Shown here in pieces: positions 456-50,900 of a DNA stretch of 64,000 nt (position 1 is its first letter; each line of letters starts with the position of its first letter). The translations under genes were made by a program, and so were the position numbers. This DNA comes from Emiliania huxleyi CCMP1516 (Eukaryota): assembly GCF_000372725.1 (NCBI RefSeq), contig NW_005201551.1, positions 280,520 to 344,519 on the forward strand, in the 5' to 3' direction. A model generated the notes under the pieces. It did not search any database and was not told the origin of the DNA. It saw nothing but the letters and a program-made list of their open reading frames with translations.

Positions 456-3400
456 AGGCCTCGCCACGCTCGCCCTCGCCCTCTCCATCGCGTGCGCGGG
501 CCTCCTCCACTTCTTCGGCCGCGCGATGCGACGGCGGCGCGGCCCTCGCTCTTCCGAGGCGCGGAGGCGGCGCAAGGCAAAAGCCTTGCTAGGAGATTGC
601 ACGAGATTGCACGAGATTGCACGAGATTGCATGATACAAAAGCCTTGCTTGGCGGCGACGGAGCCACCGTGCGTGGTTCTTTGCTAATGAGCTAGAGGTT
701 TGAGTGGCTCCTTAGGCTACTCGTCTGGTGGCGAAGGCGCGCCGCTGCGGCAGCAGTGACCCTCTGTGTGAACGGCGCCTCTTCACACCGCCAGCTGTGA
801 GCAGGTGTGTACCGCGTGCTGGCGGCGTCCTAATGAATCATTCCGTACTCTCATCATCGAGTAACAATTAATTAGGCGCACCGCGTGTTGGCGGCGGGCG
901 ACGCGGCTGCTGCTCCCCCGGCGGTGCCAGAGTGGCAGAGCGGTGTGGTTGCTATTGGCGCGTTGGCCGCGGGCGGCGGCGCCCCCCCCACTCTCGTCGG
1001 CACCGGGTTTGTGGTCTACCTTCCGCCGGCCGAGGAGGAGGTGGTTGCACGAGATTGCACGAGATTGCACCAGTCTGCGGCGAGATCGCACAAGATTGGA
1101 GCGAGATTGCACGGGATACGACGCGGGTAGTTTCTTCTTTTAGGCTGCGCGGACAGTCCCGGCGATGTGCAGTGGCGAGGGCGGCGGGGAGGGCGGCGGG
1201 GAGGGCGGCGCAGAGGGCGGCGGAAAAGGCGGCGGAAAAGGCGGCGGAAAGGGCGGCGGAAAGGGCGGCGTGGAGGCGGCGGGTTCGGTGGTGGTGGTGG
1301 CGGCGCATGCGGCTGAGGCTCCTGCGGTTGACGAGAGATGCGTGGAGGTGACCTGAGAGATTGCCCGAGATGATCCGAGGTTCTCCGAGATGATCCGAGA
1401 TTGCACGAGATGCTCCGAGATTCACAGGCAGGGTCGGGACGTGCAATCTCGTGCAATCTCGTGCAATCTCGTGCAATCTCGTGCAATCTCCTAGGCGGAC
1501 GCCATATGGGGAGATCTGGGGGAGGTATGGGGAGGTACGGGGAGATACGGGGAGATACGGGGAGATATTGGGAGATACGGGGAGGTATGGGGAGGTATGT
1601 GTGTCCTCTAGGCGGGCGCCGTGATCTCTACTTGCGCGCATGTGCTTGACGACATCCGGCAGCACGCCGCACACGCGCCGGCCGGCGCCGCCGCAGCGTC
1701 ACCGAGGCGAAGCACGCTTCTCGACCCATATGACCACGGCGAGCCTTACCCGAACCCGAACCCGAACCCGAACCCGAACCCTACCCCTACCCCTAACCCC
1801 AACCCTAACCCTAACCCCAACCCTACCCCTACCCCTACCCCCTAGTCCTATGCTTCTCGGCCCGTATGAACACGGCGTGGCGGTCCCACCGTCCACCCAC
1901 CGCCGACGACTCGGCTCGTACTCATCTGTCTCTGGCGCATCGATCACTCACCGCTCACGACTCGGCTCGTACTCATCTGTCTCTGGCGCATCGATCACTC
2001 ACCGCTCACGACTCGGCTCGTACTCATCTGTCTCTGGCGCATCGATCACTCACCGCTCACGACTCGGCTCGTACTCATCTGTCTCTGGCGCATCGATCAC
2101 TCACCGCTCACGACTCGGCTCGTACTCATCTGTCTCTGGCGCATCGATCAGGCGTGGCGATCCCGCATATCTCCCCATATCTCCCCATATCTCCCCCTAG
2201 GCGTGGCGATCGGCCTCGGTTCGCCCGCTGGGTGGCGGCTACAGGGGAGGAGAAAAAGAAATCGAGCTGGAGAGTTGTTTGTTTAGGTTCGCCCGTCGAG
2301 TGGCGCTGCAGAGGCGATGAGAAAAAAGAAACACCCGTACAGGATTTCTTTTTTAGGTTCGCCCGTTGAGTGGCGCTACGTGGCGGTGGTTCGGCGCGTG
2401 TCCCCCCCTCCTGCGCCGCGGGACGAGAGGAACGGGCTGGATTTGGTGCTGCTCGAAGTGGCGTTCCGACTCCCGCCCCCCTCCTCCTCCTCCACCTCCT
2501 CCTCCTCCACCTCCTCCTCGTCCACCGCCTCCTCCTCCTCCTCCTCGCCCGCCTCCTACGCCGCTTGGCGATCCCTCTACCCTCCTCCCCCTCCGCCGCC
2601 GCCGCCAAAGCGCTGCGGCAGATCGATCGATCTCGAGGCCTGTTGCGCGTCGCCGGCCCGCAGCAGCGGCAGCGAGGTGTCGGAGGCCGCGCTCCTTTCG
2701 CCGCGCCGCCTCGCCGCCCTTCCTCTGGGGAACGAGCTGCGGCTTCGGCTCGGAGACGACCTGGTGCGAACGAGATTGCGCGAGATTGGAATCTGAAGCT
2801 CCTCATCGAGTTAGTTAACGGACTGCCTTAATGCACTTGCCTTCGTGAGGTCCTTCTCGGCTACTCCAAGACCAGCCGCGCCCAGCGCCCCTCCGCAACA
2901 AACACGCGCGGCGTCTTTGCGGGCCGGCTCGACGACGAGCGCACAGGCGCCAGGCCGCGCACCGCTTCTGAGGAAGAAGAAGTGATAACCATATCTAACG
3001 CCGCGTCCTTTTTCTCAGGCGGGCCACTTCTGATGAGCGCTTTAGAAGAATAAGCTTCACCCCTCACGCCCTGATTCATCAGGCGCCTGGCTGCGCACGG
3101 ACGCGCTGATGCTCAGCGGCCACTCCGGCGGACCCCTCCTCAACTGCTTGGGCGAGGTGGTGGGGGGAGTCATCTGCAGTTAATTACTATCAGGCGGCCC
3201 TCTCCTCAACTGCTTGGGCGAGGTTGTGGGGTGGTCGGTGCGCTCTAACTTTGACCCGGTGGTCGCGGGTGCCGGCTACTACGCCGCCGGCCTGAACGAG
3301 GTTCGGCTCTGGCATGCCTCCGGGTTGCGCCCGAAGAAACAGAACTCACCTTTCTACTCCGGTCAATTTCTGTTTTAGGTGCGGCCGGTCTCGGGGCTGC

Positions 3401-4442
3401 GCGCAGAGCTGCTCGCGCTGCTTGGGCCGGAGGCGCCTAAAATCTCGGCTGATCTCGGCCAGTCTCTCGCTCCACTCGGCGCGTCTATCAGCTGCTGCTC
3501 GGCTAATCTCGACGACCCCGCCCCCTCCCCCCCCTCCCCCCCAAAAGGCTTTGGCGGCGGGCTGCAGCCGCTTGCCTGATGCTCGTTCGCTAACCGGCGC
3601 CGCAGCCGCCAGCAAGGCGAGATCGCACGAGATCGCACGAGATCGCACGAGATCGCACGAGATCACACGCGAGTGCACGAGATTGCACGAGATCGCACGA
3701 GATTGCACGAGGTGGCCCGACGCAGCCGAGACCATGCGATCGAGATTGGGCCTGGCTGCGACGATCGCCGCCCTCGAGACGGCGCTGTGGTGTGAACGGC
3801 GCCTCTTCACACCTCAGCTATGAATCAGGCGATGGCAGCGCTGGAGGCGGCGCTGGCCCTGCAGAGCGGGGGACCCCGCCCCCACCCCCCCTCCCCCTCC
3901 TCCCTCTCCTCCTCCTCGTCCTCCTCCTCCTCTTCCGAGGCGGACGAGGAGGACCCCGGCACGCCTCCGCACCACTCCCGCCGCCCCCGCCACTACCCGA
4001 CCACCGCCGCCGCCGCCGCCGCCGCCGCATCTCTCGGTGTCGTTGGCGGCGGCGGCGGCGCGGGCAGCGCAAAGAGCCTCCGCCCCCTCCGCCTCCCCCG
4101 CCGCCTCCCCCACCGCCTCCACGCCGCCTCCTCCTCCGCCGCCGCCTCTACCTCCGCCGCTTCCGCCACCGCCTCCTCCTCCGCCTCCCCCGCCTCCTCC
4201 GCCCCGCCATCAACGATCCGCTCCCCCCTCCGCCTCCTCTCCTCCCGCTCCCAGCACACTCCCCGCCCTCCTCCGCCGCCTCCTCCTCCTCCTCCTCCGC
4301 CTCCGCCTCCGCCGCCGCCGCCGCATCACCCTCCCCTTCCGCGTCCGCCGCCGCCGCCGCCGCCGCCGCCTCGCTTTGCCCTCCCCGCGGCCATCGCCCC
4401 AGCGGCAGCCGATGCGTCGGTGCCGCCAGGACGGAACAATAA
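456..4442 (+). CDS. Multi-exon trypsin-like (Trypsin_2/S1) serine protease with N-terminal hydrophobic segment; ends uncertain, may start upstream
   Basis: Exons give GVVAIG..VGTGFVV (~940-1020), CAHV (His, ~1640), GLDLVLL (Asp, ~2435), LPLG..LRLGDDL, VLLGY, and LRTDALMLSGHSGGPLLNCLGEVVG (Ser motif, 3085-3230). Confidence 0.8.
1748..1845 (+). repeat. Intronic telomere-like (CCCGAA)/(CCCTAA)/(CCCCTA) run
   Basis: Hexamer run ending in TAG; similar runs at 62711-62745 and 63031-63050. Confidence 0.85.
1907..2150 (+). repeat. 51-bp tandem repeat, about 5 units, intronic
   Basis: Unit CGACTCGGCTCGTACTCATCTGTCTCTGGCGCATCGATCACTCACCGCTCA; last unit ends at a CAG acceptor. Confidence 0.9.
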
Positions 4443-5201
4443 CCGTCCAAGTACTTCGCAGTTAGTTCATCAGCGCTCGTTGTTAATTAGGCGGGGCGGC
4501 GCAGCGGCCGGCTGTCTCGGGTTGCTCTGCTTGCGCGCGGCGCCGAGGCGTCCCACTTTGGAGGAGGGTCGGCAGACGAAGGGGAGGAGGAGAAGGAGGA
4601 GGAGGAGGAGACGGAAGGGCAGGGCACCTACCTGATCTGATCGCGGGCGACAGGTGAAGCGCTCGTAGAGCGACGCTGTCTGCTGTCCCATGCTATCCAG
4701 GGCTTATCGATGGCAAGGGAGAGCGAGAGCGAGAGGGCGGGCCGGGCGACCGCGCTCGCAATTCGTGTCGCATCGCGTGGCGGCACGCGTATGTTTATTT
4801 TGCGACAACTTTCTTGGTAAAGAGAGCTGTGTCGTGCACAGTCCCTGCTGTTCCCGCCCTGTCGCAACCCGTCGGTACCCCATCCACTCTCTACATCCTG
4901 AGGGGCGACCGCCACACTGGGGCGTGTTTCTTACGCTCGAGTCTCGACTCACGAACCGCCCTCCCCCGCGGCCTCGGCGCCTCGATGAAGGGGGCGCTAG
5001 CCTCCTTGGACTGCGTGTCCGACAGAACCCCCCACCCCCCCAAGCCCCATCCCCCATCCCGCCAAACCCGCGCGCGCCCCCACCGTCGCCTCTCGCTGTA
5101 CGTCATGCTTCGCAGCCGCAAGGGCTGTTGCTCTCTGTCATACTCGTGCGGCCATCCCGCCGGGCCCCGCGCCCTCGCCGCCCGGCCGGGGCTGGAGAGG
5201 C

Positions 5202-6625
5202 TCATTCGAGGTAGATACCGCGCTCCTCGCACACGGCCACCAGCTCAGGCTGCTTCTTGTTGTCCACCCAGAGCGTCTGCACGCGAGGGGATGTGCGATG
5301 AGCATTGGGTGGGGGAGGGGCGTGTGGCGAGGGGTGGCGTCTCGCGCCTTCAAGCTCGGGGCGGCCCCCTCCTTGAGGGCGGCGGCCAGCGCCTTGCAGC
5401 CCTCGTCGCCAAGCTTGTTTTCGCCGAGAGTGAGCTCCTCGAGCCGCGGCGCTGCCCCCTCCTTGCCGAGGGCGGCGGCAAGCGCCTTGCAGCCCTCGTC
5501 GCCAATCTGGTTGTCGTAGAGGTAGAGCTTCTCGAGCCGCGGCGCTGCCCCGCTCGCGAGGACCTCCGCCAGCTGCGCCGCCTCCGCGTCGCCCCAGCCG
5601 AGGTTGGCGTAGCTCAGCTTGGTCGCCTTGCCAAACTGCTCCTCGAAGGCGGCCTCGTACAGCTGCTTCACAAGCGGCTTGTCGTCCTTGCCGTTGGTGA
5701 AGCTCTTCGACTCCAGCTCCGCCGCGAACGCAGACGGCAGCAGCGGAGGGCGCCGGCCGCCGTCCTTTCTGCAGTCGTCGACGAGGCGGCCGCAGTCGTA
5801 CTCCGTGCCGGCGCGCATCTTGCCGAGGTCGAGCGAGAGGAAGCCAGCCTTTGTCAGGCCCGCCCAGCTCTGCTCGGTGAAGCACCAGCCACGGTCAAAG
5901 TACTTGGCCACGTTGGTGCCCTCGGCCTGCTCCTCCGCCTTGTGGCCGTCCGGGAAGGAGGTCAGCCGCAGCACGAAAGTGTACTTGTGGGAGTAGAGCG
6001 TGCCGAGGCAGCCCAGCCCCTGCTTGAAGAGCGCGTTCTGCTCCTCGGTGCGCAGGACGCCGTTGGCGGGGTCGGGGTGCTGGTGCAGCGAGCCGAAGTC
6101 CCAAAACACGCCGAGCCGCGGGATGAGGGGTTTGCCGAGCGAGGGATGGTCGCTGAGCAGGGCCTTGAGCGCCCTTGCGACGCGGGAGAGGTTGGCTCCG
6201 CGCGGGTCGGGGTGGTCCTTGGTCAGCCACGGGTAGGAGAGCGCGGCGACGGGAAGGCTGCCATACTCGGTGGTCGCCTCGACGAGGTCGGCGAGGGAGA
6301 GGAAGGCCTCTTTGGGCAGCGCCTGGCGGTGGGCGAGGACGCCGCCCGCCTCGGCGTGGCGGATGATCCACTGCGCGTCGAGGAGGGCGGCGGCGCCGCT
6401 CGTGAGGACCGGCTCTAGGTCGCCGCCGCCCCACTTGCGCCACCCCTCCAGCATCGTCTCGCTCACGCCGAGATCGGTGGCAGAGGCCAGGGCGGTGGCC
6501 GGCTCCGCTTCGGCATTGGCTGGGATGGGTCCCTCTGCCCGCTCTTCCTGGAGTCCGCTGCTGATGGTACTAGCAAGACCGGCAAGGTCGTCGTATTCCT
6601 GCGGCCTGCTCGCATGGCAGCCCAT
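5202..6625 (-). CDS. HET/TIR-like domain + RI-type LRR protein, copy 1 (about 450 aa, N-terminal MGC)
   Basis: Exon 6625-5348, GC-AG intron 5347-5277, exon 5276-5202. Motifs ALSYPW, VFWDFGSLHQ, LGTLYSH, YFDRGWCFTE; LRRs such as LEKLYLYDNQIGDEGCKALAAAL. Confidence 0.85.
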
Positions 6626-7471: not shown

Positions 7472-7555
<84 letters not shown>

Positions 7556-10500
7556 CACACGCACGCGCGCGCGCACGCACTCACGCACGCACGCGCGCGC
7601 GCACGCACTCACTCACTCACTCTCACGCTGCGCACGACTGGCTCGGGAGCCGGCACGAGGCACGCGGTGTGACGGGCCGCATCGCTGGGTCCCGGACTGC
7701 TGCACACAATAGTTCCGCTCACAAGGGAGATGTTGGGAGATGCGGGGAGATGTTGGGAGATGTGGGGAGATATGGGCCCCGGACGATGGCACACACAAGA
7801 GCTCACAAGGGAGATGTGGGGAGATGTGGGGAGATGTGGGGAGACATGGGTCCCTGACTGCTGGACACAATCGCTCACAAGGGGCAGCTCGCGAGGTGGA
7901 TGGACGGCGCTATAGCCAGGGCGCTACACAGAGGGCGAAGCTCGCGCGGGCGCCGCAGTCTTGCCTCGAGCCCCCCCCCTCCCCCCCCCCTTTTGGCCCC
8001 TGCAGGTACGTGGAGCTCGACCCGGAGCGCGTGTTTGAAGGCGGCCGCCTGATATGGGGAGATCTGGGGAGATCTGGGGAGATGGAGCTCGGCGGCCTCC
8101 GACCCCGCCACCTATTAGTCGTTAATTCTGAAGGTGGTCATTAGCTGATAAGCCACCTCCGCCGCCCCCTCCCTCTCCAGCCTTCAGCCCGCCCCTGCGC
8201 CGCCGCCGCCCATCCCTCCGCCGCCGCCGCCCGCCCCTCCGCCGCCGCCTCTCTCTCGCCGCCTCCTGCCTCCCCACCACTCCCCTCCCGCATCTAGAGA
8301 GTGCTGCGCAGCGCCGAGGTCTCATTCACTTCTGCCCGCTCGCGAGGTCTCGAACACACTTCTCTAGCACGTATATGACGCGCCTCAGCATGAGTTCTTT
8401 CTTTCGTTTGATCAACCGCTTGGACGGTGCCATGACTAGAGCCGATCGAGCTGACGAGTGTTTGGGGAGATGATGGGGAGATATGGGGAGATATGGGCGC
8501 AGCTGCGACCGAATGACGAGCGCTATCGACGGAGAGTTGGGCGCCATCAGTTCAGGCGCGGGTTCAACTACTTCCACCACGCAAATNNNNNNNNNNNNNN
8601 NNNNNNNNNNNNNNNNNNNNNNNNNNNNNNNNNNNNNNNNNNNNNNNNNNNNNNNNNNNNNNNNNNNNNNNNNNNNNNNNNNNNNNATATGGGGAGATGT
8701 GGGGAGATATGGGGAGATCCAGCTGACGAGCGTTTGGTTGGAGTCAGGCGGGCGGCACTTCATCTGGCTGCGCCACTCCTTCATCAAGTTCCCGCGCCGG
8801 CACGTCAAACTCGAGATCTCCCCCATATCTCCCCATGTCTCCCCATATCTCCCCATATCTCCCGCACCGGCACGTCAAACTCGAGATCTGCTCTCCGGCC
8901 TGATAAAAACAGGGGAGTGAGATTGTCGTCGCCCCGATGATTCTCAGGCTCGCCAACCTCGAGTTCACTGTGTCAACGCGGAATTAATTTTAATTAGCTT
9001 AGCTCGTGAATCTCAGGCTCGTCAACCTCGAGTTCACTGTGTCAACGCGTAATTAGTTTTAATTCGTTTAGCTCGTGAATCTCAGGCTCGTCAACCTCGA
9101 GTTCACTGTGTCAACGCGTAATTAATTTTAATTAGTTTAGCTCGTGAATCTCAGGCTCGTCAACCTCGAGTTCTCCTTTTTTAACGACGAGCCGATGAGT
9201 AAACTATTGAATTCACGGGCCTCAGGCTCGTCAACCTCGAGTTCTCCGATTTTGGGCGCGGCGAGTCGGACCAGGCCGCCGCCGCCGCCCTCGCCTCCGC
9301 CTCCCTCGCCACCGCCCCCTTCCCCGCCTCCGCCCTCGCCTCCGCCTCCTTCGCCTCCTCCTCCCTCGCCTCCTCCTCCCTCGCCGCCTCCGCCTTCGCC
9401 TCCTCCCTCGCCGCCGCCCCAGCCAGCCTTTCAACTCGTACAGACCAGGCGGGAGGCTCTCATCGCCCTGTTACCATTCTTACTTACTCTCGTGAGGCTG
9501 TGAAAGCACGCCCAACCTAGCGCACTTGCACCCGAAGGCAAGTGCGTCTGTTCACAGCTCACGAGAGTAATGCTTACTAGGCTCCCATCTCGGCGCGCAC
9601 CGGCCCCGACCCCGACGACAAGGAGTCGGGCGGCCAGCCGATCCGGCGCTCGAGACTAGCCGAGATCCGCCGAGATCCGCCGAGGGTAGCCGAGGGTAGC
9701 CGAGGGTAGCCGAGGGTCGCCGAGAGGTTCGTCGAGATTTGTCGAGATTGGGCGGCTGCCAGTTCGCGCAAGCTCAAAACGACAGCCAGCTCATACTTAC
9801 CCTGCCCACTCTTCTCTTTGCACCCAATGCCACGGAGGGGCCGCCAGCTTGCTGACAAGGGAGATGCGGGGAGATGTGGGGAGATATGGGGAGATATGGG
9901 CCCCGGACGATGGCACACACAAGAGCTCACCAGGGAGATGTGGGGAGATAGGGGAGATATAGATCCCGGACTGCTGGACACAATAGCTCACGAGGTTAGC
10001 TGATTCTCACCCAGGCTCTGCGTCGCCTTCCAGTACCAGATTGCGAGGCGCGACGTGCCTCGGATCTACCAGACGTTTGGCGCGCCGCACGCGGCTGTCG
10101 CACGAGGCTGCCCCGCTGTGAACGGCGTTTCTTCACGGGTGGACGGTGCCGAAACAGGCGCGTTGCATGAGGCTTCGTACCTGCGCTTCGCCCAGCAGGC
10201 CGTTGCGCCGAGCAGCTTGCGGGCGCGCCTCTGAGCGTGCATCGAGAGCGGGCAGTTTTTTCTGTGTTTCAGGCCATCACAAACGAGGCGCAGATGTTCA
10301 CTCCGCGCGCGTTTTGGACGGACCGCAAGAAGGTGGAGGGGCAGCTGCTGGGCAAGGTGGCATGTCGCCGAGACGCCGCCAGAGATGCCGCCGAGAGCGG
10401 GAGGAGGGCAGCCGTGCGCATCGGAGTGGGCGAGGAGACGCCGCCGAGCCGGCGGCTCGGCAGCTTCCTTTTCTGCAGCCAAGTGGAGCCGTCGTCTCGG

Positions 10501-25241: not shown

Positions 25242-25414
25242 CTCGACTACGGCTTTACGCGAGAGTGCCGAGGGATTGGCCGAGTGCCGAGAGAGACCTG
25301 TCTCCGGCAATACAGTATCCGTCTACCCCGTCAAGCTGACGCGTGGGGGGGCGTGCGCTCCCGCCTCCTCGGTTGTTGGAGGTGAAATGTGAGCTAACCA
25401 CCAAACCAGAGGGT

Positions 25415-25551: not shown

Positions 25552-26328
<777 letters not shown>

Positions 26329-35040: not shown

Positions 35041-35727
35041 CGTGAGAAGTCGATCGACTTTGACAAGGACACAGGTGGAAAAGAATTCAACGCGGCACGC
35101 GACAGTACCAAAAGAGGAACACTCGATCGCGTCGCCTACACGAAGGCGTCGAGGGGGGGACAGTTTATTTCTTTTTTTGAGCTTAGCCTTCGATGTTAGG
35201 AAACAAAGCAAGGCGGGACATGGCATATCGCTCTCGGGCTCACAGACATCCCTCACACCCGCCGCCCCCGCGCGCGCCCCACCCCGGCCGGGAGAGAGGG
35301 GAGTGACAGTTTGGGACGGCGACAGCCCGAGTATGTTGAGTCCTGGCTCAACAACGCAGGGTTCAAGAGGGGGTGGTCCGGCTCACAAGTCCGGCTCACG
35401 CGCCTCGAGCTGACCATCTTGCCCGCTCCCGCCCGCTACACGCGGTCCAATATTACCTGAGATTACCCGAGATTACCCGAGATTGCCCGAGATTACTCGA
35501 TATCGCCCGAGATCGCGAGTAGTGTTTGTTTGTGTTTGTGTGCGCGCGTGTGTGCGTGTGTGTTTGCGTGTGTGTGTGTGTGTGTGTAAGTGCCCACACT
35601 CCCCGACTACACGAGGTCCAATATTACCTGAGATCACCCGAGATTACCCAAGATAACCCGAGGTACAGATCACCCGAGATCTCCCAAGATTACCCGAGAT
35701 TACCCGAGGTTACTATCAGTGCGTGTG

Positions 35728-35931: not shown

Positions 35932-38900
35932 ATGCTGCTCTCCTGTTTGGCGCTGTCGCCGTCCGACGCCTCGCCGACGCCGGCAGGCCGCGGTGAGCCA
36001 TCAACCACGCCTCCGCGCGCCGCGCTGCCGCTGCTGCTTCCAGAAGCCGCCTCCACCAAATTGGTGCCAAAGTCCCGCCGTAGTAGCCGCGGGCGATGTT
36101 TGCAACACTGGACGTAGAGCGGCACGGCGGCGATGACCCGGGCGCTTCAGAGGGCCTCTGGCCACCGTACACACACACATTCACAAGCAAGTACACACAG
36201 GCACCGCGCCTCAGCCGCGTCGGTACATGCAGGCGCTGCAGCCCGAGGCGCTGGACTACGTCGCTGGCCTGCGCGGGCCGGTGGCGGTGGTGGCAGCGAT
36301 CGGCCAGTACCGGAGCGGCAAGTCGTTTCTGCTCAACCAGCTGATGCGGCTCAACTGCAGCGAGGGCTTCCAGGACACTTTCATAGACATGTCACAACAA
36401 CCGCGGCTCCAGGACACTTAAAAACATAGACAGCTCACAAAGCACCGCGGCTCGAGGCCACTCTCGTAGACAGTTCACACTCCAGTCACACACACGTGCG
36501 GGACCGGTCACGCGCACATGTACATGTGAGGCGCCTCCGGTGCACGCCTCCATTGCCCAATGCATCCCTCATCCGTCTCTTCACACGCCGGTGGCCGCGA
36601 GCAGGTCGGGCACCGGCGGGATTACCCGAGATTACCCGAGATTACCCGAGATTACCCGAGATTACCCGAGCAGGTCGGGCACCGGCGGGACGCGCAGACC
36701 AAAGGAGTGTGGCTGTACGGGCAGCGCGCCGAGGCGTTCGGAGGCCCCGGAGGCGCCACGGTCCTCTTTCTTTAATTGTTTAACGAGTCGCACTTGACTA
36801 ACCACAGGGGAATTGAGTACAGGCGCCACGGTTCTCTTTCTCGACTCCGAGGGGTTCGAGGGGACGGGGAAGGCGGCTGCGTACGACGACCGCATCTTTG
36901 CGTTTGCGGCGCTGTCCGCTGCGGCTCGGGTAATCTCGGGCAATCTCGGGTAATCTCGGGTAATCTCGAGCAGGTGCTGTCCGCGGCGGCGGTGCTCATT
37001 CTAGGAACCTTCTAGGAACCTTCAGGAGCCTTCTAGGGTACTTCTAGGTGCTGTCCGCGGCGGCGGTGCTCTACAATCTGGTGGAGGGCCGTCCGAGAGG
37101 CGGCGCTTTCAATGATAACCAATGAATGAGTTCGTTTTCATTGTATGAAAGGTGGAGACTACTCGAGAGGGGCGGCGCCCTTTTAGTTCACTCTCAAGTA
37201 ACGAATCGCCTTTCCTTAAATGAAAGGTGGAGACCATCCGAGAGGCGGACATCGCGAAGCTGGCCTTCGCTGTTAATTAATAATTAGTTAAAGGCTCTGA
37301 TAATTAATTACAGGCGGACATCGCGAAGCTGGCCTTCGCCGCGCAGCTGGCGTCGGAGTTCTGGCGCCGCACTAGCGGCGAGGCGGGCGGAGGAGGCGGG
37401 GGAGAGGGCGAGGGCGGCGGCGGCGAGGGGAGCGACAGTGGCGATGGCGGCGGCGGCGAGGAAGGCGGAGGGAAGGGTCGCGGCACGGCGCGGCGGCGGT
37501 GGGCTCCTCCTGCAATGCTCTGGCGTGTGCAGCGCCGACGTCTTTAAGTCATTAACGAATCGTGATGAATTAATTGGAGGGAATTGAGTCCAGGCGTGTG
37601 CGACGTCTTTAATTAGTTAAACCAATCGTCCCTATCTAATCAGAGGTGGTTAGTCACAGGCTTGTGCAGCGCGACTTCTTGCAAGGAGGGTCGGTGGAGG
37701 AGTATCTGCGGCAGGCGCTTAGTTATTACTAAGGGTAATGAATTAAGGGTCATGAATTAAGGGGAATTAATTAAGGTCGGTCGAGGAGTCCTTGCGGCAG
37801 GCGGCTCAATGAACTAATTACTACCCCTCCATTAAGGGTACTTAATTGAGGTGGAGGAGTCCTTGCGGCAGGCGCTGCAGCCGGTCTAGCCGCCTAGAAG
37901 CAGACATACGTATTCTTACACTCCAACAAGCGCTCGAGAGACGTACTCAGCCGTATGATTCGGCCGTGTTCACTGTAGTCGCCCCCCTCGTATTCAAACG
38001 GTGCTCTGAAGACGCTGCACAGTACCGCCTTCCCGCCCCCGAGGTTGTTGGCGGATTCGTGACTTGTAGGTCGAGCACGCTCCGACGGACGCGCAGGCGG
38101 GGCAGCCGAGAGTACCCGAGAGGACCCGAGAGGACCCGAGAGGACCCGAGAGGACCCGAGAGGACCCGAGAGGACCCGAGATTACCCGAGAGTACCCGAG
38201 AGGAGCCGAGAGTACCCGAGAGTACCCGAGAGTACCCGGGATTGTCCGAGACGCCCAGGCGAGGCAGCTCTGACTCGGTGTTAGCTAGCTGTGAACTCGT
38301 TGTGAACTCGTTGTGAATTCGTTGTGAACTCGTTGTCAACTCGTTGTCAACTCGTTGTCAACTCGACGCGCAGGCGGGGCAGCTCAACGCCATCCGCCGC
38401 ACACTGCGCTCCTTCGGCGGCATGCGCGGCCTCGGCTTACCGCAGCCCCACCCTTCCCGAACGTCCCTCTGCGACCTCCCGCCCGATCAGCTAGCGGCAG
38501 AGTACCGGGCGGGCATGCAGGCTGTGCGGGAGTGGGTCGGTTCTGTTGCGCAACGGCGGAGGAGGCGGGCGCCGGCGGCGGAGGCGGAGGCGGAGGCGGA
38601 GGCGGAGGCGGAGGAGGCGGAGGAGGCGGAGGCGGCGGAGCGGCCAGTTGCGTCACGCGTTGGGACGACTGCAGCAGACGCGATGGCGATGGCAAATGGG
38701 AATGGGAGGGTGTGGGGCAGTGGCAAGGAGCTGGCGGGGGCGGTGCGGAAGCTGGTGGAGGCGCTCAACGCCAACGCCATCCCGACGGCCGGCTCCGTCA
38801 TCGACTCTTTCAACAACGAGGCGATCCCGTTGATTAATTATTGATTACAGAGGCAGTGATGAAATGATCAACAGATTGACTCGTTCAACAACGAGGCGAC

Positions 38901-39648: not shown

Positions 39649-39682
<34 letters not shown>

Positions 39683-39707: not shown

Positions 39708-39764
<57 letters not shown>

Positions 39765-42147
39765 CAGAGAGACAGAGAGACAGAGAGACAGAGAGACAGA
39801 GAGACAAACAGTTATTGAAACGTATTCAGGCGACGCCAACTTCCGCGCGTCACACGCCCAGTGCCGCCTGCTCTGGTCTCGCTGCGCCGCCTCCCTCGCC
39901 GCCCTCCGCGCCGTGTTGCTGCCCTCCCGCCGCCGCTTCCACGCGCGCGTCGAGCGCTGCAACGACACATTGAGGTTTATTATTATCATTGCTACTGTTG
40001 TTGTTGTTGTTGTTATTACTATTATGATTAGTGGCATCACTATTTCTTATCATCGCTGTTTATTGGTATTCATGAGCATCGCTACTTACTATTGCCATTA
40101 CTCTACTGTGATTGTGATCCTCACTGTTGTTGTTATATTGTTACCATTCTGATTGTTGTCATTCCTACTTTAGCGGCTGCGTTGGGCCGGCGGCGGCGGA
40201 GTATCACGAGAGGCTGGCGCTGGAGGCGGGGAAGGGCGAGGAGGAGTTCAATGCGCGCTTCCACGGCCAGCTGTCCCACGCCCTCTTCCTGTTGTGCGTT
40301 GGCGGCATCCTCACCTTCTGCGACGTGGTCGTGAGCGCACTGATGAATCTTAACTAATAATTAATGAGTATTAATTCATAGGCATCCTCACCTTCTGCGA
40401 CGTGGTCGTGAGCGCACTGATGAATCTGAACTAATAAGTAATGAGTATTAATTCATAGGCATCCTCACCTTCCGCTACGTGGCCGTGAGCGCCTTAATGA
40501 ATCTTGATTAATATCAATTAGTATTCATGCATAGGCATCCTCACCTTCCGCTACGTGGCCGTGAGCGCATTAAATAATCTGAAGATTGATCTTAATAATT
40601 CAATTCATAGGCATCCTCACCTTCCGCTACGTGGCCGTGAGCGCCTTAATGAATCTTGATTAATATCAATTAGTATTCATTCATAGGCATCCTCACCTTC
40701 CGCTACGTGGCCGTGAGCGCATTACACAATCTGAAGATTGATCTTAATAATTCAATTCATAGGCATCCTCACCTTCCGCTACGTGGCCGTGAGCGCCCTC
40801 GCCGAGGTGGGCTGCCGGCTGCTGCTGCCTTAAGAGCTGGGGCCGCGTCCTGTGACCGCGTGATCCGGTGTGATCTGGTGTGACCACAGGTCGGCTGCTG
40901 GCTGCTGTTAATTAATAGCAATCAAGATGAACTAATCTCGGCCGATCTCGCGGAGGTGGGCTGCTGGCTGCTGCTGGCGTCGGTGGAGCTGCTGCCCAGG
41001 CTGGCCAAGCTTTAAATAAATAAATAAAAACGGACACCTCTCTACTGTGAGATGGGTAAAAAGGAACAGGTCCCCGCCCTTGCGATCTTTGTGCAGGGTT
41101 CTTTGTTGGCCAAGCCAAGTTTTGCTTCTCAGATAGATTGGCATCCATAATCACTATGATACGAGTTAATGAGCTCAAGCTGCGTCTTCGCAGGCTGGCT
41201 GCGCTCGCCCAGTTCTCGCCCGTCGCCGCAGCTACTGCGTCGGTCTGGGAGATATGGGGAGATATGGGGAGATACGGGGAGATAGTGTCCCCCCATCCCC
41301 AGGGCCTTCAGGGCTCACACCTCACCCTCTCACAGACCAGCTCGCAGCGCCATAGGACGTATTTCCTTCTCAACAACAAGGCGTGTGAATAGGTCTGGGA
41401 GACGGCGGCGGGGAAGGTGGCTGTCGATTGGTACGAAGGCGATTAATTAATTGGGCGATGAATTCAGATTTATCAATTAAAGGCGGCTGTCGAGTGGTAC
41501 GAGGCGATTAAATCAGTGAATTGGGCGATGAATTCATATGTGTCAGTTAAAGGCGGCTGTCGAGTGGTACGAAGGCGATTAATTAATTGGGCGAGTAATT
41601 CAGATTTATCAATTAAAGGCGGCTGTCGAGTGGTACGAGGCGATTAAATCAGTGAATTGGGCGAGTAATTCAGATTTCTCAGTTAAAGGCGGCTGTCGAG
41701 TGGTACGAGGCGGTGGTGTTCAATCCGGTGGCGGATTTGGACAACCTGCTGCTGCCGCTGGCCGCCGGCCTCCTCGCCGTCTGCACTGCGCGATACTGCC
41801 GCCGCTGCGCGCGCGCCACGCGCCGCTGGCGAGGGCGATCAGCTGGCGAGATGCAGCCGAGATGCAGCCGAGATGCAGCCGAGATGCAGCCGAGATGCAG
41901 CCGAGATGCGGGCGAGATGCGGCCGAGATGCAGCCGAGATGCAGCCGAGATGCGGCCGAGATGCAGCCGAGATACACCCGTTGCAGCCGATGTACGCCCG
42001 CCCGAGAACGCCCGAGATGATCCGAGATCACCCGAGATTTCCGAGCTCAGGCAGCTACCGGCACGTCGGCGGCGGCGACGACGACGACGACGAGGAGGAG
42101 GAGGACGATCTCTCGGGGTCGAGGCACGTCTCCGGTCGCTGGCCTGA
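35932..42147 (+). CDS. Guanylate-binding protein/atlastin-family GTPase with C-terminal TM segments
   Basis: PVAVVAAIGQYRSGKSFLLNQL (G1), QTKGVW (G2), FLDSEGF (G3), DDRIFAFAAL, LWLVQRDF, LPQP; hydrophobic segments at ~40280, 40770 and 41750. Confidence 0.9.
37884..38069 (+). mobile_element. Introner-like intron, copy A (GBP gene)
   Basis: GCCTAGAAGC..AGCGCTCGAG..CGGTGCTCTGAAGAC.CTGC..CCCGCCCC..TAG; starts GTCTAGC, next exon starts GTCGAGC. Confidence 0.8.
38803..39110 (+). repeat. About 75-bp tandem array, 4 copies, intronic
   Basis: GACTCGTTCAACAACGAGGCGATCCCGTTG plus AT-rich spacer. Confidence 0.9.
40304..40797 (+). repeat. Acceptor + exon-start array, 7 copies, 76-77 bp period
   Basis: GGCATCCTCACCTTC..ACGTGG.CGTGAGCGC at 40304, 40381, 40458, 40534, 40610, 40686 and 40762; spacers end CATAG. 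Confidence 0.92.
41414..41712 (+). repeat. Acceptor + exon-start array, 5 copies, 66/70 bp alternating period
   Basis: AAGGCGGCTGTCGAGTGGTACGA repeated with AT-rich spacers. Confidence 0.9.
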
Positions 42148-43106
42148 CNNNNNNNNNNNNNNNNNNNNNNNNNNNNNNNNNNNNNNNNNNNNNNNNNNNN
42201 NNNNNNNNNNNNNNNNNNNNNNNNNNNNNNNNNNNNNNNNNNNNNNNNTTTCCCCCCCCCCTTTTTTCCCCCCCCCCCCCCCCTCCCTCCCCCCCCCCAT
42301 CCTCCTCCAGCCCTTTCCCCGCCGAGGAACAACATTCACTTAGCGGCGCGCTAAATTCTTAACGACTCGACTACTGCGCAGGACGACGGGATGTGGACAA
42401 GATGTGGTCGAAGCTCCTCGAACATCTCCCCTCCCAGTCAAAGCGGGTTGAGCCCCCTTCCCTTAATTCACAGCTCGAGGCTCGGTGGCTCTTGACACGT
42501 CCTGGGAGTCTCTCGGAGTAACTCTCGTCCATCTCTCAATAGGCCAGCTGTCGCGGCTCGAGCGGGCCTCCCGCCCCACCAGCCCGGGAGAGGTGGAGCT
42601 GCTGCCTCGCGCGGCGTGAGGCTACACACCACGGCTTTACACCATGCGAGGTCACTCGAGAGTACACATACGCGACGAGTACGCGGGAGGATGGTGCGTC
42701 GTTATCCGATGACGACCGAGCGACCGGCACCCTCCCGGCGCACCGGTGCCGGTGCCGGTCCGCGCGCTGCAGCGCACCTCCTCGCCCTCCCCCCTCTCTT
42801 TCCGATGTCTGGTACGATTACAAAAAGTCTGGTTTGTAGAGTGTTGGTACGCCACGTCTCCCTCGCCCCTCGGCCTCCCTCCCCCGCGCGCACGCGCGCC
42901 AAAGATGAATGGCAATATGGCCAATGCGCACAAGCCACAACACATCTGGGCAACGCGCAAGCAATGAAGGTTCATCTGTGCATGATTGTGGGTGACTCTG
43001 ACTAGCTGCACACGCGGCCGTGCCGGTCTGTGACGCTCTCTGCCGAGCTCGCACGGCGGTCCCGCCGGGCCCCGCGCCCTCGCCACCCGGCCGGGGCTGG
43101 AGAGGC

Positions 43107-43895
43107 TCAGCAGAGGTCGATGCCGCGCTCCTCGCACACGGCCACCAGCTCAGGCTGCTTCTTGTTCGGGTAGCCCACCTCGAGCTTCTGCACGCGACGG
43201 GAGGCGCGATGAGCATTGGGCGGGGGAGGGGCGTGTGGCGAGGGGGGGAGGCGTCTCGCGCCTTCAAGCTCGGGGCGGCCCCCTCCTTGAGGGCGGCGGC
43301 CAGCGCCTTGCAGCCCTCGTCGCCAATCTTGTTGCCGCCGAGATAGAGCGTCTCGAGCCGCGGCGCTGCCCCGCTCGCGAGGACCTCCGCCAGCTGCGCC
43401 GCCTCCGCGTCGCCCCAGCCGAGCATGCCGTAGCCCAGCACGGTCGCCTTGCCAAACTGCTCCTTGAAGGCGGCCTCGTACAGCCGCTTCACCAGCGGCT
43501 TGTCGTCCTTGCCGTTGGTGAAGCTCTTCGTCTCAAGCTCCGCCGCGAACGCAGACGGCAGCAGCGGAGGGCGCCGGCCGCCGTCCTGGATGCAGTCGGT
43601 GATGAGGTTGACGAAGTCGTACTCCACGCCGGCGCGCATCTTGCCGAGGTCGAGCGAGAGGGTCCAGGCCTTTGTCAGGCCAGCCCAGCTCTGCTCGGTG
43701 TAGCACCAGCCGCGGTCAAAGTACTTGGCCACGTTGGTGCCTTCGGCCTGGTTCTCCGCCTTGTGGCCGTCCGGGAAGGAGGTCAGCCGCAGCACCCAAG
43801 TGTGCGGGTGGGAGTAGAGCGTGCCGAGGCAGCCCAGCCCCTGCTTGAAGAGCGCGTTCTGCTCCTCGGTGCGCAGGACGCCGTTGGCGGGGTCG
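43107..43895 (-). pseudogene. HET/TIR-like + LRR protein, copy 4, 5'-truncated
   Basis: Homology begins at DPANGVLRTEEQ; upstream is replaced by repeat sequence (43896-43930, matches 53688-53720); same terminal GC-AG intron. Confidence 0.8.
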
Positions 43896-44983
43896 TGGCA
43901 AATCAAGACACAGAGCTCACACAGAATCACAGCGGGAGGAAAGCGGCGAGTCGCAATTCCAGGGGTCGTTGTGGCGGGCCACCCTGTCTTCTTTGCCGTG
44001 TTAGTGGCAAAGTCGCGTCGATCTTTTTCTTGACCCAGTATCGTAGTCTTTGTTAGTATCGAGGTCTCGCGAGTTTTGGGGGTTCTCGGCGCCGCGACAG
44101 CGCTGCGAGCGGCGCGATGCCACGGCGCTTGGCCTGCTGAGAGAAGAGCTTCCCGGACGGCAGTGACAAGTTACCCGACATCAATCGTCGACGGCAACCT
44201 CGAGAACTGCGCCTCCAAAGTCGCCCAGATTCGCCTCTCGCGGCGCGCTGAGTTAGTATCGCCGGTGCGCCAGCAGGCTCTGCTCCACAGCAGGGCATGC
44301 CCGACTGGCTCCTGCTAGCCGTGCGTCCTGGTGGCATCCATTGCCAGCTCAGGTAGCCTCAGGAGGTCGCCTCGCGCACGACGCGGCGTCGCACAGCACC
44401 GCTCAGCGTTACTACCGAGTTAGTATCGTCGACCCACAGAGACTGCTCTTCTGTAGGTGGAGCCGACAAACGCCGGCCGGATCGGCGCCGCCGCCCCCAT
44501 CGCCGCCGCCGGGGCGGCGGCGGCCTCGGCGGACCATCCGGCGCGCCGCGCGCCCGTCGGGGAGGTGTTCACCACCCCTGGCTCCTCACCCCGCCACGCC
44601 TTCGTGCGGACGCCGTGGCACCCACCTCAGGCGCCGCTCGGACTCGGTTGACGGCCACCCAAGTGCTTGGCTCGTGCCAAGCCGACCGGCAGGCGATTCC
44701 CAGTCACTGCTAGGCTAATCTCGGGCTGTCCTGCGTCAGTGTGGTGCCGTGAGGGGCGCCGCCCCCAAAACTACGATCGTTAGTACCGTGTAGGGGCAGT
44801 GCATTTAATTCTGTCACAAATCCAAATCTGCTCCGTGGAGCTTATTGGGCTAGGATCATACGTCCGGGAGGCCCCCCATGCGTGCCGTAACGATCGACAG
44901 CGATCTGGCTACTCTGTTCACGTTCACACCTCGAAACCCCCCATAACCCCGATACAGGAGGTAGCCGGCCCGGCACCCGCTCG

Positions 44984-47900
44984 ATGACAGCGCTCGCTCG
45001 CTCGCTGCTGCTCTTCACCGCCCTCCTCTCGCCTTCCCTGGCCGTCGCAGCGGTTAGCGGCGTCGCGCCCTCCAATCCTCCCTCCGCGTGCGTCGACGGC
45101 GGCGACGGCAAACTGAGGGTGCTCCTCATCGCTCCCGCGTGGCCGTGGGGATTTGGCGCCTACCAGAGCCAACTCTCGACGCTCGGCGCCGCCCTCGTCG
45201 ACCTCGGTTACGCCGTGGTGTGGAACGCGGCGTTTCGGCCCGGAGTGCTCCCCGACCCGGACAGAGTCTACACCTTCTCCGAGGCGTCGCTGCTCGCAGC
45301 GGGCGGCGACGGCCGACTGCCGACGGAGAGCGCGCCGTCCGCCGCCACCGCCGCCCGCTCGTCGCGGTTCGGCTTCATCGACGTGCCGCTTCCCGAGGCG
45401 TACTGGGGCCGCGGCAACGGCGTCCTCGTCTCGGCCGTCGATGCGGCGGCGAGACGACACGCCATCGACGCCGTGATCCTCTTGCTCGACGCAAACCTGG
45501 CATCTCGCGATATCTCGCCACATCTCCTCGTATCTCCATCTCTCCATCTCTGACCGTCTCTCCCCATATCTCCCCACCTCTCGCCATCAAGACAGTGCCG
45601 AGGCTACCTCGTCGGCCGCGCGAGTGTGAGCTGGCTTCGCCGCGCTGTGAATAGGTGCTGAGCGACGTGGACCGCACCCGGCCCTACTCCGTCTTTTGGT
45701 TCCCGTCGCACTTTGACGCGTTTGTCCCGTCGCAGCGGCGCGCGCCTTAATTGATTAATTCGAAACTCCTTATTAATTTATAAAGAGGCATTGAGCGGAG
45801 GCACCCACGCGCAGCACACCGGCGAGGGGCTCCAGCACACCCGACGCCGCGGGGCTAGCGCGCACAGATGGCAACACGCACAGATGGCCTGAGACGGCCG
45901 AAAGCTGCGACCGACACCCGCCCGGTAGGCGCGCGCTGTTAAATTGATGATGAATCAATCAATATCTGACCGACACCCGCCCGGTACGCAGGCGAGCGCT
46001 CTCCGCTTTCGACGCCATCGCTGCGCTGGCGCCGTCGGCAGAGCAGCCTAGAAGCGCAAGGCGTACTCATCGGTTCCCACTAGCGCTCGAGCGGACACGT
46101 ATTCAGCCGTACTCGCAGCCCCTCGTACTCACGCGGTGCTCCAAATACACTGCACAACACCGTCCTCCCGCCCCGAGGTTGACGCACTCAGCACGTAGGC
46201 GGAGCAGATGCTTCGCGAGTCGCCGGCCGAGAGCGGTGAGTTTGACCCGGCCAGCAAATGGGTCGGCACCATCCCGCATGTGGCGGAGCCGCCGCCAGGG
46301 CTGCACGAGGCCTTCTACGGGGATGGCCTCGGTGGGATCGACGCGCTCCGCCCGTCGCTGCGCCGCAAGCACGGTATGCCGACCGCCGCGTTTGTCGCGC
46401 TGGTCAACTGTGGCAACTACGACGCGGTGAACCGAAAGGCGCTGGATGTGGCGGTGCTGGCGTTCAAGGCGCTGCGAGAGACGGTGGCGGGGGCGCACCT
46501 CTTTCTCAAAGTGATGTCTACCGCGCACATCCTCGCTGCCGAGGGCAACGGGCTGCCGGAGCAACACACCGCCGACCCCGCAATCAGCCTGGCGGGGCTG
46601 CTGCGGGCCGCAGGGCTGCCAGCAGGCTCCTTCACAGTGGAGGACCGGGTGCTGGACTGGAGTGCCTCGTGGGAGATGCTGGCAGCAGCGGACGTCCTGC
46701 TGATGCCATCGAAGAGCGAAGGGTTCGGCTTGCCGCTGCTCGAGGCGCAGCGCGTTGGCACACCCGCCGTCACCACCGCGTTCGGCGCTATGGCGGACTA
46801 CACGTGGCATGGCCTCTCTGTTCCGTTTGTGCAGCGCAGCTTTCTCAGCGACGGCTTCGCCGCCACGCCGAGTGTGGCCGGTACCGCGGACGCACTGCGC
46901 AGGGTCGCAGCTGGAGAGTTGTCAGCATCGACGCGGGAGGCTGCTGCCCGCCGCATACGCGCCGAGCTCTCTTCGGCGGCGGTGGGGCGGCGGTTTCACG
47001 AGCTGCTGCTGCGGGGCGTCTGTGGGGAGGGGGGCGAGGAGGAGGGGTTGGGCGAGGCGGAGGCGGGGAAGGAGGAGGAGGAAGCAGCGGCGGCGGAGGA
47101 GGAGGCGGCGGAGGGAGAGCAGGAGGAGGAGGAGGCGGAGGCCGAGGCGGGGCAGGAGGGCGAGGGCGAGGAGGAGGAGGAGGAGGAGGCAGCGGCAGGG
47201 CAGGAGGGCGAGGGTGAGGAGGACGAGGGCGAGGGGTCGTCCGTGTCGATCAGCGAGTGGCTGCCATCGCCCGGGCGCGGCAGCCGCGTCGCCTCCGCCG
47301 CCGACCCCGCCGCCGCCAACGCGCCGCCGCCACCCTCCACCACCACCACCGCCGCCGTCACTGCGGTTGCGCGTCACTCGGAGTGCACAGGGGAGAACGC
47401 GCTTCTGATGCGGACTCGGGAGGACGGCGTGTGCAGCAACGACGGCGCAGGAGCAGGAGCAGGTGGGGAAGCAGGAGCAGGGGGCGAATGGGGAGCAGCA
47501 GCAGCAGCAGGAGGAGGAGGAGGAGGAGGAGGAGGCGGCGGAGACGGAGGAGCAGGAGGAGGAGGAGGAGGAGGAGGCGATGTTGGTGTTTGGGTGGTGG
47601 CGGCTCCAGTCACTATCATTAACTGAGTAATAGGTGTTGATGGAGTGACTGGGTGGAGTTTGGTCGGAGGAGGCGGCGCAGGGGATTTGCCCCCGGCCCG
47701 AGTCCATGGGTGCTCAATAACTAATCATTAACCACGTACCGAACAGGCGAGGGGGCGGCCGCCGACGCGAGTCCATGGGTGGTCAATTAATTGATCGTTA
47801 ACAACTGATAGGAGGGGGCGGCCCCCGTCCCGAGTCCGTAGGGGATGCGTTCGTGATCAGTAACTAGTCATTAACAATTGGTAGGCGAGGGGACGGCCGC

Positions 47901-50900
47901 CGACGCGAGGGACTCGCAGGAAAGCTGGGACGCCTCCGAGCTGGACTGGTTCGTCAAAGCACGCGAGCAGGAGTGGGGAGATACAGGGAGATATGGGGAG
48001 ATATGGGGGGATATGGGTTCGTCAAAGCGCGCGAGCAGGAGACTAATGAGTGAGTAATGAGCCACTTACTAATGAATGAGAATAAACAGCCACTTATTAA
48101 TGAGTGAGAATGAACAGCCACTTGCCAATGAGAGCACGCAGTGCTAATGACCACGAGAACACGTTAACTTGCTGATGACTGGTTGTGGAGAAGAACACGA
48201 ACAGTCTTCAGCCCGCGGGCAGGATACGAGCGCGGAGGCGAAAGAATAGTTAACTACGTCATGGTTAGTGAACTAACTACCGGTGCAGGACGCCGGCGCT
48301 CCCACTGCTTGATCCAACCCTTGGCCCTCTGATGTCCAGTGCAGCACATGCACTCTTGGTGTGTGTGTGCTGTGGGCCCTCCTTGTCTTTGCAGTAGACC
48401 GTGTGGGGTAACACCTACCTACCTACCTACCTGCAGGACGCCGGCGCGGTGGCGGCGCTGCTGAAGCGAGACCGGCAGCGCCTGTCGGCGGAGGCGCGCG
48501 GGCTGAGTACGGAAGTAAAGACGGGTCATAGCCAATCATACCAGCCCACTCTTTCCTTTGCACCTGGCCATATCTCCCCATATCTCCCCACTCTTTCCTT
48601 TGCACTTGGTGCTACAGAGGGCCGCCAGCACGCTGACATCTCCCCTCATCTCCCCATATCTCCCCATATCTCCCCATATCTCCCCATATCTCCCCATGTC
48701 TCCCCGTATTTCCCCATATCTCCCCACATCTCCCCATATCTCCCCATATCTCCCCATATCTCCCCATATCTCCCCGTATCTCCCCATATCTCCCCACATC
48801 TCCCCATATCTCCCCATATCTCCCCATATCTCCTCGTATCTCCCCGTATCTCCCCATTTTCCCATATCTCCCCACATCTCCCCATATCTCCCCGTATCTC
48901 CTCATATCTCCCCATCTCCCCGCGGGAGGTATACCAATCGCACCGCCAGGTGGAAGAGAAGTCATGGGGGCTGCAACCATAGTAGCACTGTTTAGTCAGG
49001 CGGGCGGGCGGGTTGTGGCGGGCGCCGAGGAGATGCACCGCCAAAGCGTAATGTGGCATACCGGAGCGGCGTAGGCGCCGAGGGCTGGGCGGCGGCGGGC
49101 GGAGTGACGAGGCAACCACTCACGTTTAGCAAGGCTGGACTTAAGGCGGCGCCGACGGAACCAACAGCCGGCGTCGGAGTTCGCGTCCTGAAGCGTACCA
49201 TGCTATGGGATCAGGCGCGAGGACTGGCGGCGTCGGACCCGCTGCCAGCGTGGGCGCTCGCCTGCTCGGACAACACACTAAGTCATCAGTGCTCAGAAGC
49301 CTACTCACACGGGTCGTGTGTTAGGTGCTTGTCTGCTCGGACGGAGCCTCGCGCTGTGAACGGCGTCTCTTCACACCTGCTGCTGTGAACAGGTGCTCGT
49401 CTGCTCGGACAGAGTGGTGCTGCGAGAGGGCGCGAGCTAGCCGAGATGCAGCCGAGATGAGCCGAGATGCAGCCGAGATGCAGCCTAGATGCAGCCGAGA
49501 TGCAGCCGAGATGCAGACGAGATGCACCCGAGATGCAGCCGAGATGCAGCCTAGATGCAGCCGAGATGCAGCCTAGATGCAGCCGAGATGCAGCCGAGAT
49601 GCAGCCTAGATGCAGCCGAGGACGTTGCGGCGGCGGCGAGGCGCGTGTGAACGGCGTCTCTTCACACCTGCAGCTGTGAACAGGCGAGAGGACGAGCTAG
49701 AGGACAGCTCTGGTGTGAACGGCGTCTCTTCACACCTGCAGCTGTGAACAGGCGAGAGGACGAGCTAGAGGACAGCTCTGGTGTGAACGGCGTCTCTTCA
49801 CACCTGCAGCTGTGAACAGGCGAGAGGACGAGCTAGAGGACAGCTCTGGTGTGAACGGCGTCTCTTCACACCTGCAGCTGTGAACAGGCGAGAGGACGAG
49901 CTAGAGGACAGCTCTGGTGTGAACGGCGTCTCTTCACACCTGCAGCTGTGAACAGGCGAGAGGAGGAGCTAGAGGACAGCTCTGGTGTGAACGGCGTCTC
50001 TTCACACCTGCAGCTGTGAATAGGCGCGCTGGCCGTGCTGAAGCGCGGCGGGTGGCACTTTAAGTTCCCAGACACCAACGTCTTCTTCCTGCTGACGCGC
50101 CACGCCGACGGTGCGCCACCCCCCCCCCCCTTCCCCCTTCCCCCCCCCCCCCCCCTTTTTTTAACGGAGGCTGTTTTGCAGTGAGGGGTGCTCTGCGTGA
50201 GAACTAATGGTTAATTAATGGTTCACAACAGCCCCCCCCCCCCCCCACCACCCCCCGCAAGAGCGGAGATTTGCTTCATCCGTAATGTGGTTCGTCGTTC
50301 CTGACAGGCACCCCAAAAGAAGCTAAAAAAGGAGCTTCAATGAATAGTCAACGATGAATTTAATGACTATCAGGCGCCGTCACCCCGAAAGAAGCAGATC
50401 TGCAGCGAGGGAAACTGCCGCAGCACGCCGTCGTACTGGCGCGCACCTCTGGCGCTCCCTCGCCGCTACCATCTCTGTCTGTGAGAGAGCCGTCCGCTTT
50501 GAGTTTACTGCAGGTGCGCACCTCGCGCTACCTCGCCGCCGCGCGCGCCCTCTCTGTGCCGCCCAGGAAGCCGTCGGAGATATAGCCGAGATGTGGCCGA
50601 GGTGCAGTTGAGACATCATCCAGGTCGCCGTCGGAGACATAGCCCCGCGTTATCTCAGCGACATCGATATTGATAGTGATGCTACAGGTGAACGGAAGCC
50701 CGTCGGAGATCCGCGCGATTGAGAGCGTTAAGACAAAGGTGAACAATCATGCTGACGACTCTTGTGATTGGCAACAGGAAGCCGTCGGAGCTCCACGTAC
50801 GCGAGGCGCTCAGAGCGCGACGCTGCGCCCCGTGTGTGTGCGCGCGGCGTCTCTTCACAGCTGCAGCTGTGAACAGGTGCTGGAGGCGACGCTGCGCGGC

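Follow-up and report, generated by a model that had tools for sequence, protein, structure and literature searches.

The origin of new spliceosomal introns is a long-open question, and several routes of gain have been described. Introners can take their donor from a short duplication, of 4 bp and in earlier families of 3–9 bp (PMC9860276); new introns of Daphnia pulex come from staggered double-strand-break repair, with repeats of 4–12 bp (PMC4202315; review PMC3443670); and a further described route is the duplication in tandem of an exon segment that contains AGGT (PMC3443670). Here we analysed a 64,000-nt stretch of Emiliania huxleyi CCMP1516 (contig NW_005201551.1, positions 280,520 to 344,519 of the forward strand; the whole stretch is hereafter the window), in which a 38-nt cassette ending in AG recurs. 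The cassette is the acceptor half of many short introns, whose GC or GT donor half is a 25–39-nt copy of the start of the downstream exon; in this anatomy our confidence is high. Both halves and their likely sources are visible here, the donor half being the gene's own exon and the acceptor half a common cassette matching a satellite. Our joint reading, to which we give a probability of roughly 0.55, is that cassette acceptor and exon-copy donor together form introns of 63–78 nt, and that the pair was likely made by repair synthesis into an exon.

The cassette and its exon-derived donor

We scanned both strands of the window with the cassette's 21-nt core, allowing up to 3 mismatches and using 100 shuffles as control. 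All 11 matches lay on the + strand (core positions 767, 3791, 10117, 49355, six within 49646–49986 at a period of 68, and 50839), and the shuffles gave 0. To sample the wider family, metagenome contigs were scanned for the exact core, which gave at least 124 stretches; all locus counts here and below are among the matches listed. Of the 127 distinct non-viral contexts left after removal of repeats, 110 closed the cassette with a same-strand, acceptor-like YAG, 10 fell in the reverse class, 5 had no such end and 2 were cut off. The recurrent 38-bp module proposed in the initial annotation of the window is thereby confirmed, and so is its bias in orientation, whose lack that annotation had named as telling against the proposal. 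The cassette was 38 nt long in 74 of the 110 YAG-ending contexts, and the base after YAG was G in 108 of them (GC 67, GT 34, GA 6, GG 1). Neighbouring matches to a cassette profile lay on the same strand in 42 cases and on the opposite strand in 7, three of these being shadows of the cassette's own palindrome; a profile search of the reversed sequence gave zero matches. Mean identity of copies to the majority sequence was 91%, with free variation in mid-cassette. Four viral contigs also carried the core, in one unrelated context and without an acceptor, which we judged to be chance. Contig depth in DNA run X2, summed over the cassette, was ~2,400x that of the flank, a figure that is not a copy number and was not used.

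The donor half emerged from comparing the 40 nt downstream of each cassette with the 60 nt upstream, against a cross-locus null whose 99th percentile set the cut-off. This anatomy set held 104 of the 110 acceptor-type copies, 5 without enough flank and 1 near-duplicate being excluded; a few of its rows are alleles of a single locus, and one apparent chance match of non-haptophyte origin (L041) was retained. Upstream of the cassette, the beginning of the downstream exon was present in duplicate in 60/104, against 2% and 0% in two same-locus controls. The duplicates were 25–39 nt long (mean 31.7, sd 3.3) at a mean identity of 94%, 17/60 being free of mismatches in local alignment. Their alignment began at exon base 1 in 46/60, their first letters form the donor (GC in 36, GT in 17), and a G immediately preceded them in 52/60. 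Only 15/60 of the exons end in AG, so the acceptor comes from the cassette. The ~22-bp duplication that the initial annotation had seen around 49324–49415 is present (49325–49346 / 49393–49414, 20/22 identical); described there as a bracket at one site, it was understated, being the usual anatomy and the source of the donor. Predicted introns spanned 63–77 nt (median 70), and their lengths were even modulo 3 (22/18/20), so the units, if they lie within coding sequence, must be spliced. A base-by-base profile of 25 well-aligned loci outside arrays placed the junctions precisely: the match dropped from 0.60–0.96 to 0.20 exactly at the first cassette base, and at the start of the duplicate the G at −1 matched in 0.96, the base at −2 only in 0.36. 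Targets ended in G (17/25, p=0.001) and C (14/25, p=0.02), the same GC that precedes most cassettes.

Window copies and their use in splicing

The copies and units in the window are as follows.

767..804, + strand: full cassette, putatively the 3' half of a 68-nt GC..AG unit at 737–804
805–875, + strand: 71-nt unit with AT-rich filler, directly adjoining the 737–804 unit
3791..3828, + strand: full cassette ending CTATGAATCAG, behind a diverged copy of the downstream exon start at ~3758–3785
10080..10157, + strand: intron of 78 nt (GC-AG) in a Band-7 (SPFH) gene, with degenerate cassette 10117–10157; seen in RNA contigs
36573..36604, + strand: 5'-truncated cassette, followed by a 69-nt duplicate-plus-microsatellite unit at 36605–36673
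49325..49354, + strand: 5' half of a 68-nt unit, repeating the beginning of the downstream exon and carrying a GT donor; abuts an older AG
49355..49392, + strand: full cassette, presumably used as acceptor
49393..49429, + strand: predicted 37-nt exon beginning with the duplicated target, from sequence and reading frame
49646..50023, + strand: six cassettes at a period of 68, separated by 30-nt spacers, the 3' end of a predicted stacked intron 49430–50023
50806..50876, + strand: 71-nt GC-AG intron, a diverged exon-start copy plus 5'-truncated cassette 50845–50876; RNA joint

The copy at 36573–36604 had been overlooked in the initial annotation, and acceptor-only ends (TGTGAAYAG) also occur at 10829, 12373, 41384 and 45646. 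Differences between 3758–3785 and 3829–3855 fall, by eye, mostly at apparent third codon positions, as in some old duplicates.

RNA evidence of splicing consisted of a single, strandless contig per run, with runs X10, X11 and X14 representing three metatranscriptome studies. At 10080–10157, contigs from these three runs skip 78 nt, resolved as GC..AG, and run X6 reads through. The transcript-derived protein P0005 runs through this junction without a break, and the exon near 10950 has a 98% match to transcript-derived proteins from a cluster whose members carry the name of Emiliania huxleyi Band-7 proteins. In the same three runs, contigs lie from 50023 onward and, rather than entering the cassette, extend by 30, 46 and 79 letters that lie outside the stretch. 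These runs also have an RNA joint into 50875 with 13 intervening letters, which fits exon 50791–50803 by letter count. The AG end claimed initially for the module is therefore an acceptor in RNA at all three copies tested (10157, 50023 and 50876), the first belonging to what had been called a partial copy at 10117 and is now a degenerate cassette with its AG end corrected to 10157. The claim does not extend to every copy: the AG at 804, at 36604 and in the first five array copies directly precedes another intron-like unit, and is thus internal, not a final acceptor. A two-unit stack of 120 nt was excised whole in RNA, and in DNA run X2 a unit of the 49325 type adjoins an additional cassette copy, which suggests that unit number varies. 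Single RNA-supported introns of the two genes measure 70–78 nt, so the length is probably set by splicing rather than by the cut. Homologues of the 46199–47020 exon were too distant for exon mapping.

Two further sites were noted beside these genes. An RNA-supported 77-nt intron at 10761–10837 resolves to a GA donor and has the 3' end TGTGAACAG. At 50566–50790 the short exon start GCCGTCGGAG occurs four times, each behind a different AG-ending filler, and the stack is removed in RNA.

Source of the cassette and origin of the unit

The initial annotation had proposed a TGTGAA/TTCACA stem. Such pairing is possible, and a working hairpin found no support: folding z-scores of 8 stretches were ordinary (−1.76 to +0.60), two of six single copies fold with TTCACA paired to the 3' TGTGAA in place of the proposed partner, and covariation was absent at 8 of 9 variable positions, the ninth involving adjacent, unpairable bases and the core being fixed by the scan pattern. 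We therefore do not adopt the hairpin as a working structure. The same arms would be the inverted repeats of a tiny non-autonomous DNA transposon, an Introner resembling a miniature inverted-repeat transposable element (MITE) and moved by a transposase. Sharp ends and a target preference would suit such an element, and Introners with their own 3' site and a duplication-derived 5' site are described (PMC9860276). The cassette's ends, however, are TGTGAAC direct repeats with the inverted arms lying internally, so there are no terminal inverted repeats; its duplications are 25–39 nt and variable against the 3–9 bp given for such Introners, a variability that argues against a fixed integrase stagger; and neither stem covariation nor nucleosome-spaced insertion was found. 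Nucleosome-linker targeting was rejected on 29 aperiodic spacings (p=0.26 at 178 bp; 0.56 at the best period) and on the lack of any CpG excess in targets (0.144 vs 0.159 and 0.149). We hold a transposon origin to be highly improbable. What stands of the portable splice-acceptor cassette first proposed is the recurrent acceptor; its portability as a self-contained transposon is at most putative, as no empty site appeared at loci chosen for carrying the cassette and unrelated fillers share the plan.

A likely source of the acceptor half is a dispersed tandem satellite whose 178-bp monomers are paired into 356-bp units and which holds the core at six loci:

L008, L044, L072, L074, L076, L116: short dispersed satellite arrays with ragged ends, a T7 run and the core inside

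The window contains none of this satellite apart from the cassette itself. Two monomers align over their full length, both with the core's 3' part, so the core stretch is native to the satellite, and the first 36 nt of the cassette are identical at 33 and 32 positions in two loci. On its opposite strand the satellite ends in an acceptor of the TATGAACAG type; this is the strand used by introns L030 and L067, the former matching it at 92% over 51 nt. Inversion of the loop was considered for the 10 reverse contexts and rejected: they are the six satellite loci, these two introns, likely L005, and a nested copy at L012. From this sequence match, the cassette probably descends from the 178/356-bp satellite.

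The plan of duplicate plus filler extends beyond the cassette. We scanned 101 loci with arrays removed, 27 of 128 having been excluded as satellite, reverse-class, duplicate or chance. An upstream duplicate at 50–95 nt was present at 93/478 sense YAG/GY sites (the slash here and below marks a junction) and at 95/3641 non-AG controls (Fisher p=3e-40); antisense sites gave 14/297. The non-cassette filter was passed by 47 rows, ~39 of which were left once 8 were discarded by eye. Their fillers are AT-rich, 10–11-mer repeats, telomere-like or unique, with totals clustering near 70 nt, and the window too holds this plan with unrelated fillers. Arrays of 66–81-nt units of duplicate plus other filler were seen at 8948–9225, 24156–24368, 40305–40762, 41483–41688, 55648–56052 and 57338–58003; they may be spliced recursively, with exons of zero length.

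Such interchangeability is what ectopic gene conversion would produce if the cassette overwrote the 3' filler of existing introns and was retained as a good branch-point and acceptor, creating none anew. The constancy of total length near 70 nt, the units stacked behind older acceptors (804, 36604, 49324) and the free variation in mid-cassette all agree with it. Conversion would not explain where the duplicates came from, and the exact abutment with no residual filler and the 17 mismatch-free duplicates also tell against it. We consider it improbable, ranking it below retrotransposition at a nick and above a DNA transposon.

Retrotransposition would take the form of target-primed reverse transcription: a short RNA, either a satellite transcript or an intron 3' end, would be copied at a nick by a non-LTR (long terminal repeat), Penelope-like or telomerase-like enzyme, with the second nick ~30 nt off. 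Duplications of variable length are expected of retroposition by short interspersed nuclear elements (SINEs) or non-LTR elements, the usual length there being 7–20 bp, shorter than the 25–39 nt found here. Also in keeping are the fixed 3' end with 5'-truncated copies (36573, 50845 and several loci), the telomere-like and 10–11-mer repeat fillers in the same plan, and the T7 run of the satellite. Against this, no copy carries a poly-A or simple-repeat 3' tail, the YAG being followed by exon G as noted above, and all 103 scanned copies begin at the same base, although the scan pattern itself forces that. No enzyme or template RNA was identified. A tRNA scan of the six satellite loci gave 0, an Rfam scan of them one chance match (E=0.99), and high RNA-run depth over the cassette cannot demonstrate a cassette RNA. 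This route we regard as unlikely.

Copying by template-switching repair fits best, because the duplicates are long and variable, the matching ends short (GC, G/GY) and the fillers interchangeable. A nascent strand that stalls or is nicked within an exon, frequently with GC at its end, would switch to another cassette copy at GC/TGTGAAC, copy through AG-G and return to a G/GY site ~30 nt upstream, leaving exon-X-cassette-X. An intron running from the first X to the cassette AG would, once spliced out, leave the mRNA exactly restored; selection would retain just the units close to the genome's usual 70-nt intron length; and slippage between both X copies would give arrays. The duplications make it probable that introns were created by insertion, and template switching is our tentative choice for the copying step, at somewhat less than even odds. 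Several observations weigh against this reading. A search for empty sites gave 5 candidates, all array self-hits, at loci chosen for carrying the cassette, and no intron-less orthologue was seen, so the argument for gain is drawn from the duplications. A strong 5' duplicate appears in just 1 of 10 resolved RNA joints (score 36; others 10–17), 44/104 copies have no significant duplicate, and the match already declines over the last 6 nt ahead of the cassette. Run X6 retains the 10080 intron, the one intron examined there. An enzyme that prefers certain targets would also account for a two-letter microhomology, and random switching does not explain the fixed 5' end well. Four of the six satellite loci match the cassette at just 25–27/36 nt ungapped, none has a forward AG, and the direction from satellite to cassette is not proven and may be the reverse. 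The 44 copies without a duplicate may have decayed, may be chimeras assembled at the repeat, or may have arisen differently. At L094:200–520 and L099:200–520 the upstream exon and cassette are common and the downstream parts unrelated, a sign of recombination at the cassette or of an assembly chimera.

A broader version of the template-switching reading would invoke dedicated templated-synthesis machinery, active genome-wide, that joins a ~30-nt G/GY exon duplicate to interchangeable 3' half-introns (the cassette, telomere-like repeats, 10–11-mer repeats and AT-rich tracts), with unit-by-unit recursive splicing of the 70-nt stacks across zero-length exons, and that explains most GC-AG introns, a process unlike the Introners described so far; we find this doubtful.

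The window has other repeats. A second dispersed repeat of ~165–180 nt, 70–78% identical between copies, apparently forms intron 3' parts, and a gene with apparently few introns, its ends resembling leucine-rich repeats (by eye), occurs in four copies on the − strand:

37889–38070, 46075–46194, 62533–62702, 63297–63458, 63680–63854: copies of the second repeat
5093–6514, 29576–31042, 33638–35419, 43025–43898, − strand: copies of the intron-poor gene

Between 29576–31042 and 33953–35419 identity is 100% over 1467 bp, beside assembly gaps. An inverted repeat at 25607–25734 / 26028–26165 (93% over 138 bp), with TGTAGAG units and flanking GT microsatellites, is MITE-like. A last exon and 3' region are duplicated 6 kb apart at 25107–25400 / 31390–31691 (97% over 302 bp).

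Comparison with described intron gains

E. huxleyi CCMP1516 already figures in Introner catalogues. Tables of a 2022 supplement give three families of average length 37, and a 2025 supplement (PMC12130899) lists fam4 and fam3, the former with 45 GT-AG copies, columns 113–150, a "4-bp TSD" (target-site duplication) score of 0.756 and an automated consensus of 360 bp. The tables class these families as LTR/unknown, with "co-opt both" or a TSD of "?", at 54–57% GC; GC over our cassette copies is 60%. Bases 2–38 of the cassette read GT...AG, 37 nt, in 70/103 copies. The 0.756 score is close to the cassette's internal repeat ACGG/ACAG (0.75 in the majority sequence, 0.67 over copies), and the 360-bp consensus to the 356-bp satellite unit. 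The length of 37, the false 4-bp duplication and the 360-bp consensus suggest that the published families are the cassette. The 37-nt families and fam4/fam3 are thus probably the cassette family misread as a whole intron, an identity that is circumstantial and drawn from descriptions: the tables have 37-nt GT-AG introns, whereas RNA here gives 71–78-nt GC-AG introns starting in duplicated exon sequence. The cassette motif did not turn up in the supplements searched, that of 2022 in part. A gene model that misses GC donors would keep a false exon stretch of ~30 nt, and an Introner catalogue resting on such models would place the family in the wrong class.

A full-text literature search, which covered few subscription papers and not the E. 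huxleyi genome paper or its supplements, returned no paper describing an anatomy with such long duplicates or a connection to the satellite. The copies here range from perfect to decayed and many E. huxleyi strains have been sequenced, which makes gain, loss and array growth directly testable.

Set beside the Introners of PMC9860276, the E. huxleyi unit is alike in that a repeat supplies the AG, duplicated exon supplies the donor and splicing restores the mRNA. Those elements have terminal inverted repeats and constitute the whole intron; here the repeated element is 38 of ~70 intron nt, and the remainder is a locus-specific, variable duplicate of 25–39 nt that makes up nearly half of the intron. 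With the Daphnia introns it shares a direct repeat of adjacent exon at the far intron end (60/104). Most Daphnia fillers have no known source, and gain of that type would be expected to leave a filler unique to each site, whereas the near-identical E. huxleyi filler recurs at more than 100 unrelated sites with fixed ends and 25–39-nt repeats. Tandem duplication of an exon segment with AGGT likewise derives a splice site from duplicated exon and gives a precise gain, and differs in that the E. huxleyi duplicate gives the donor only, the acceptor coming from the cassette. The cassette is a real, spliced acceptor element found genome-wide, a variant form of Introners and of break-repair introns, and one that has probably been catalogued but misdescribed.

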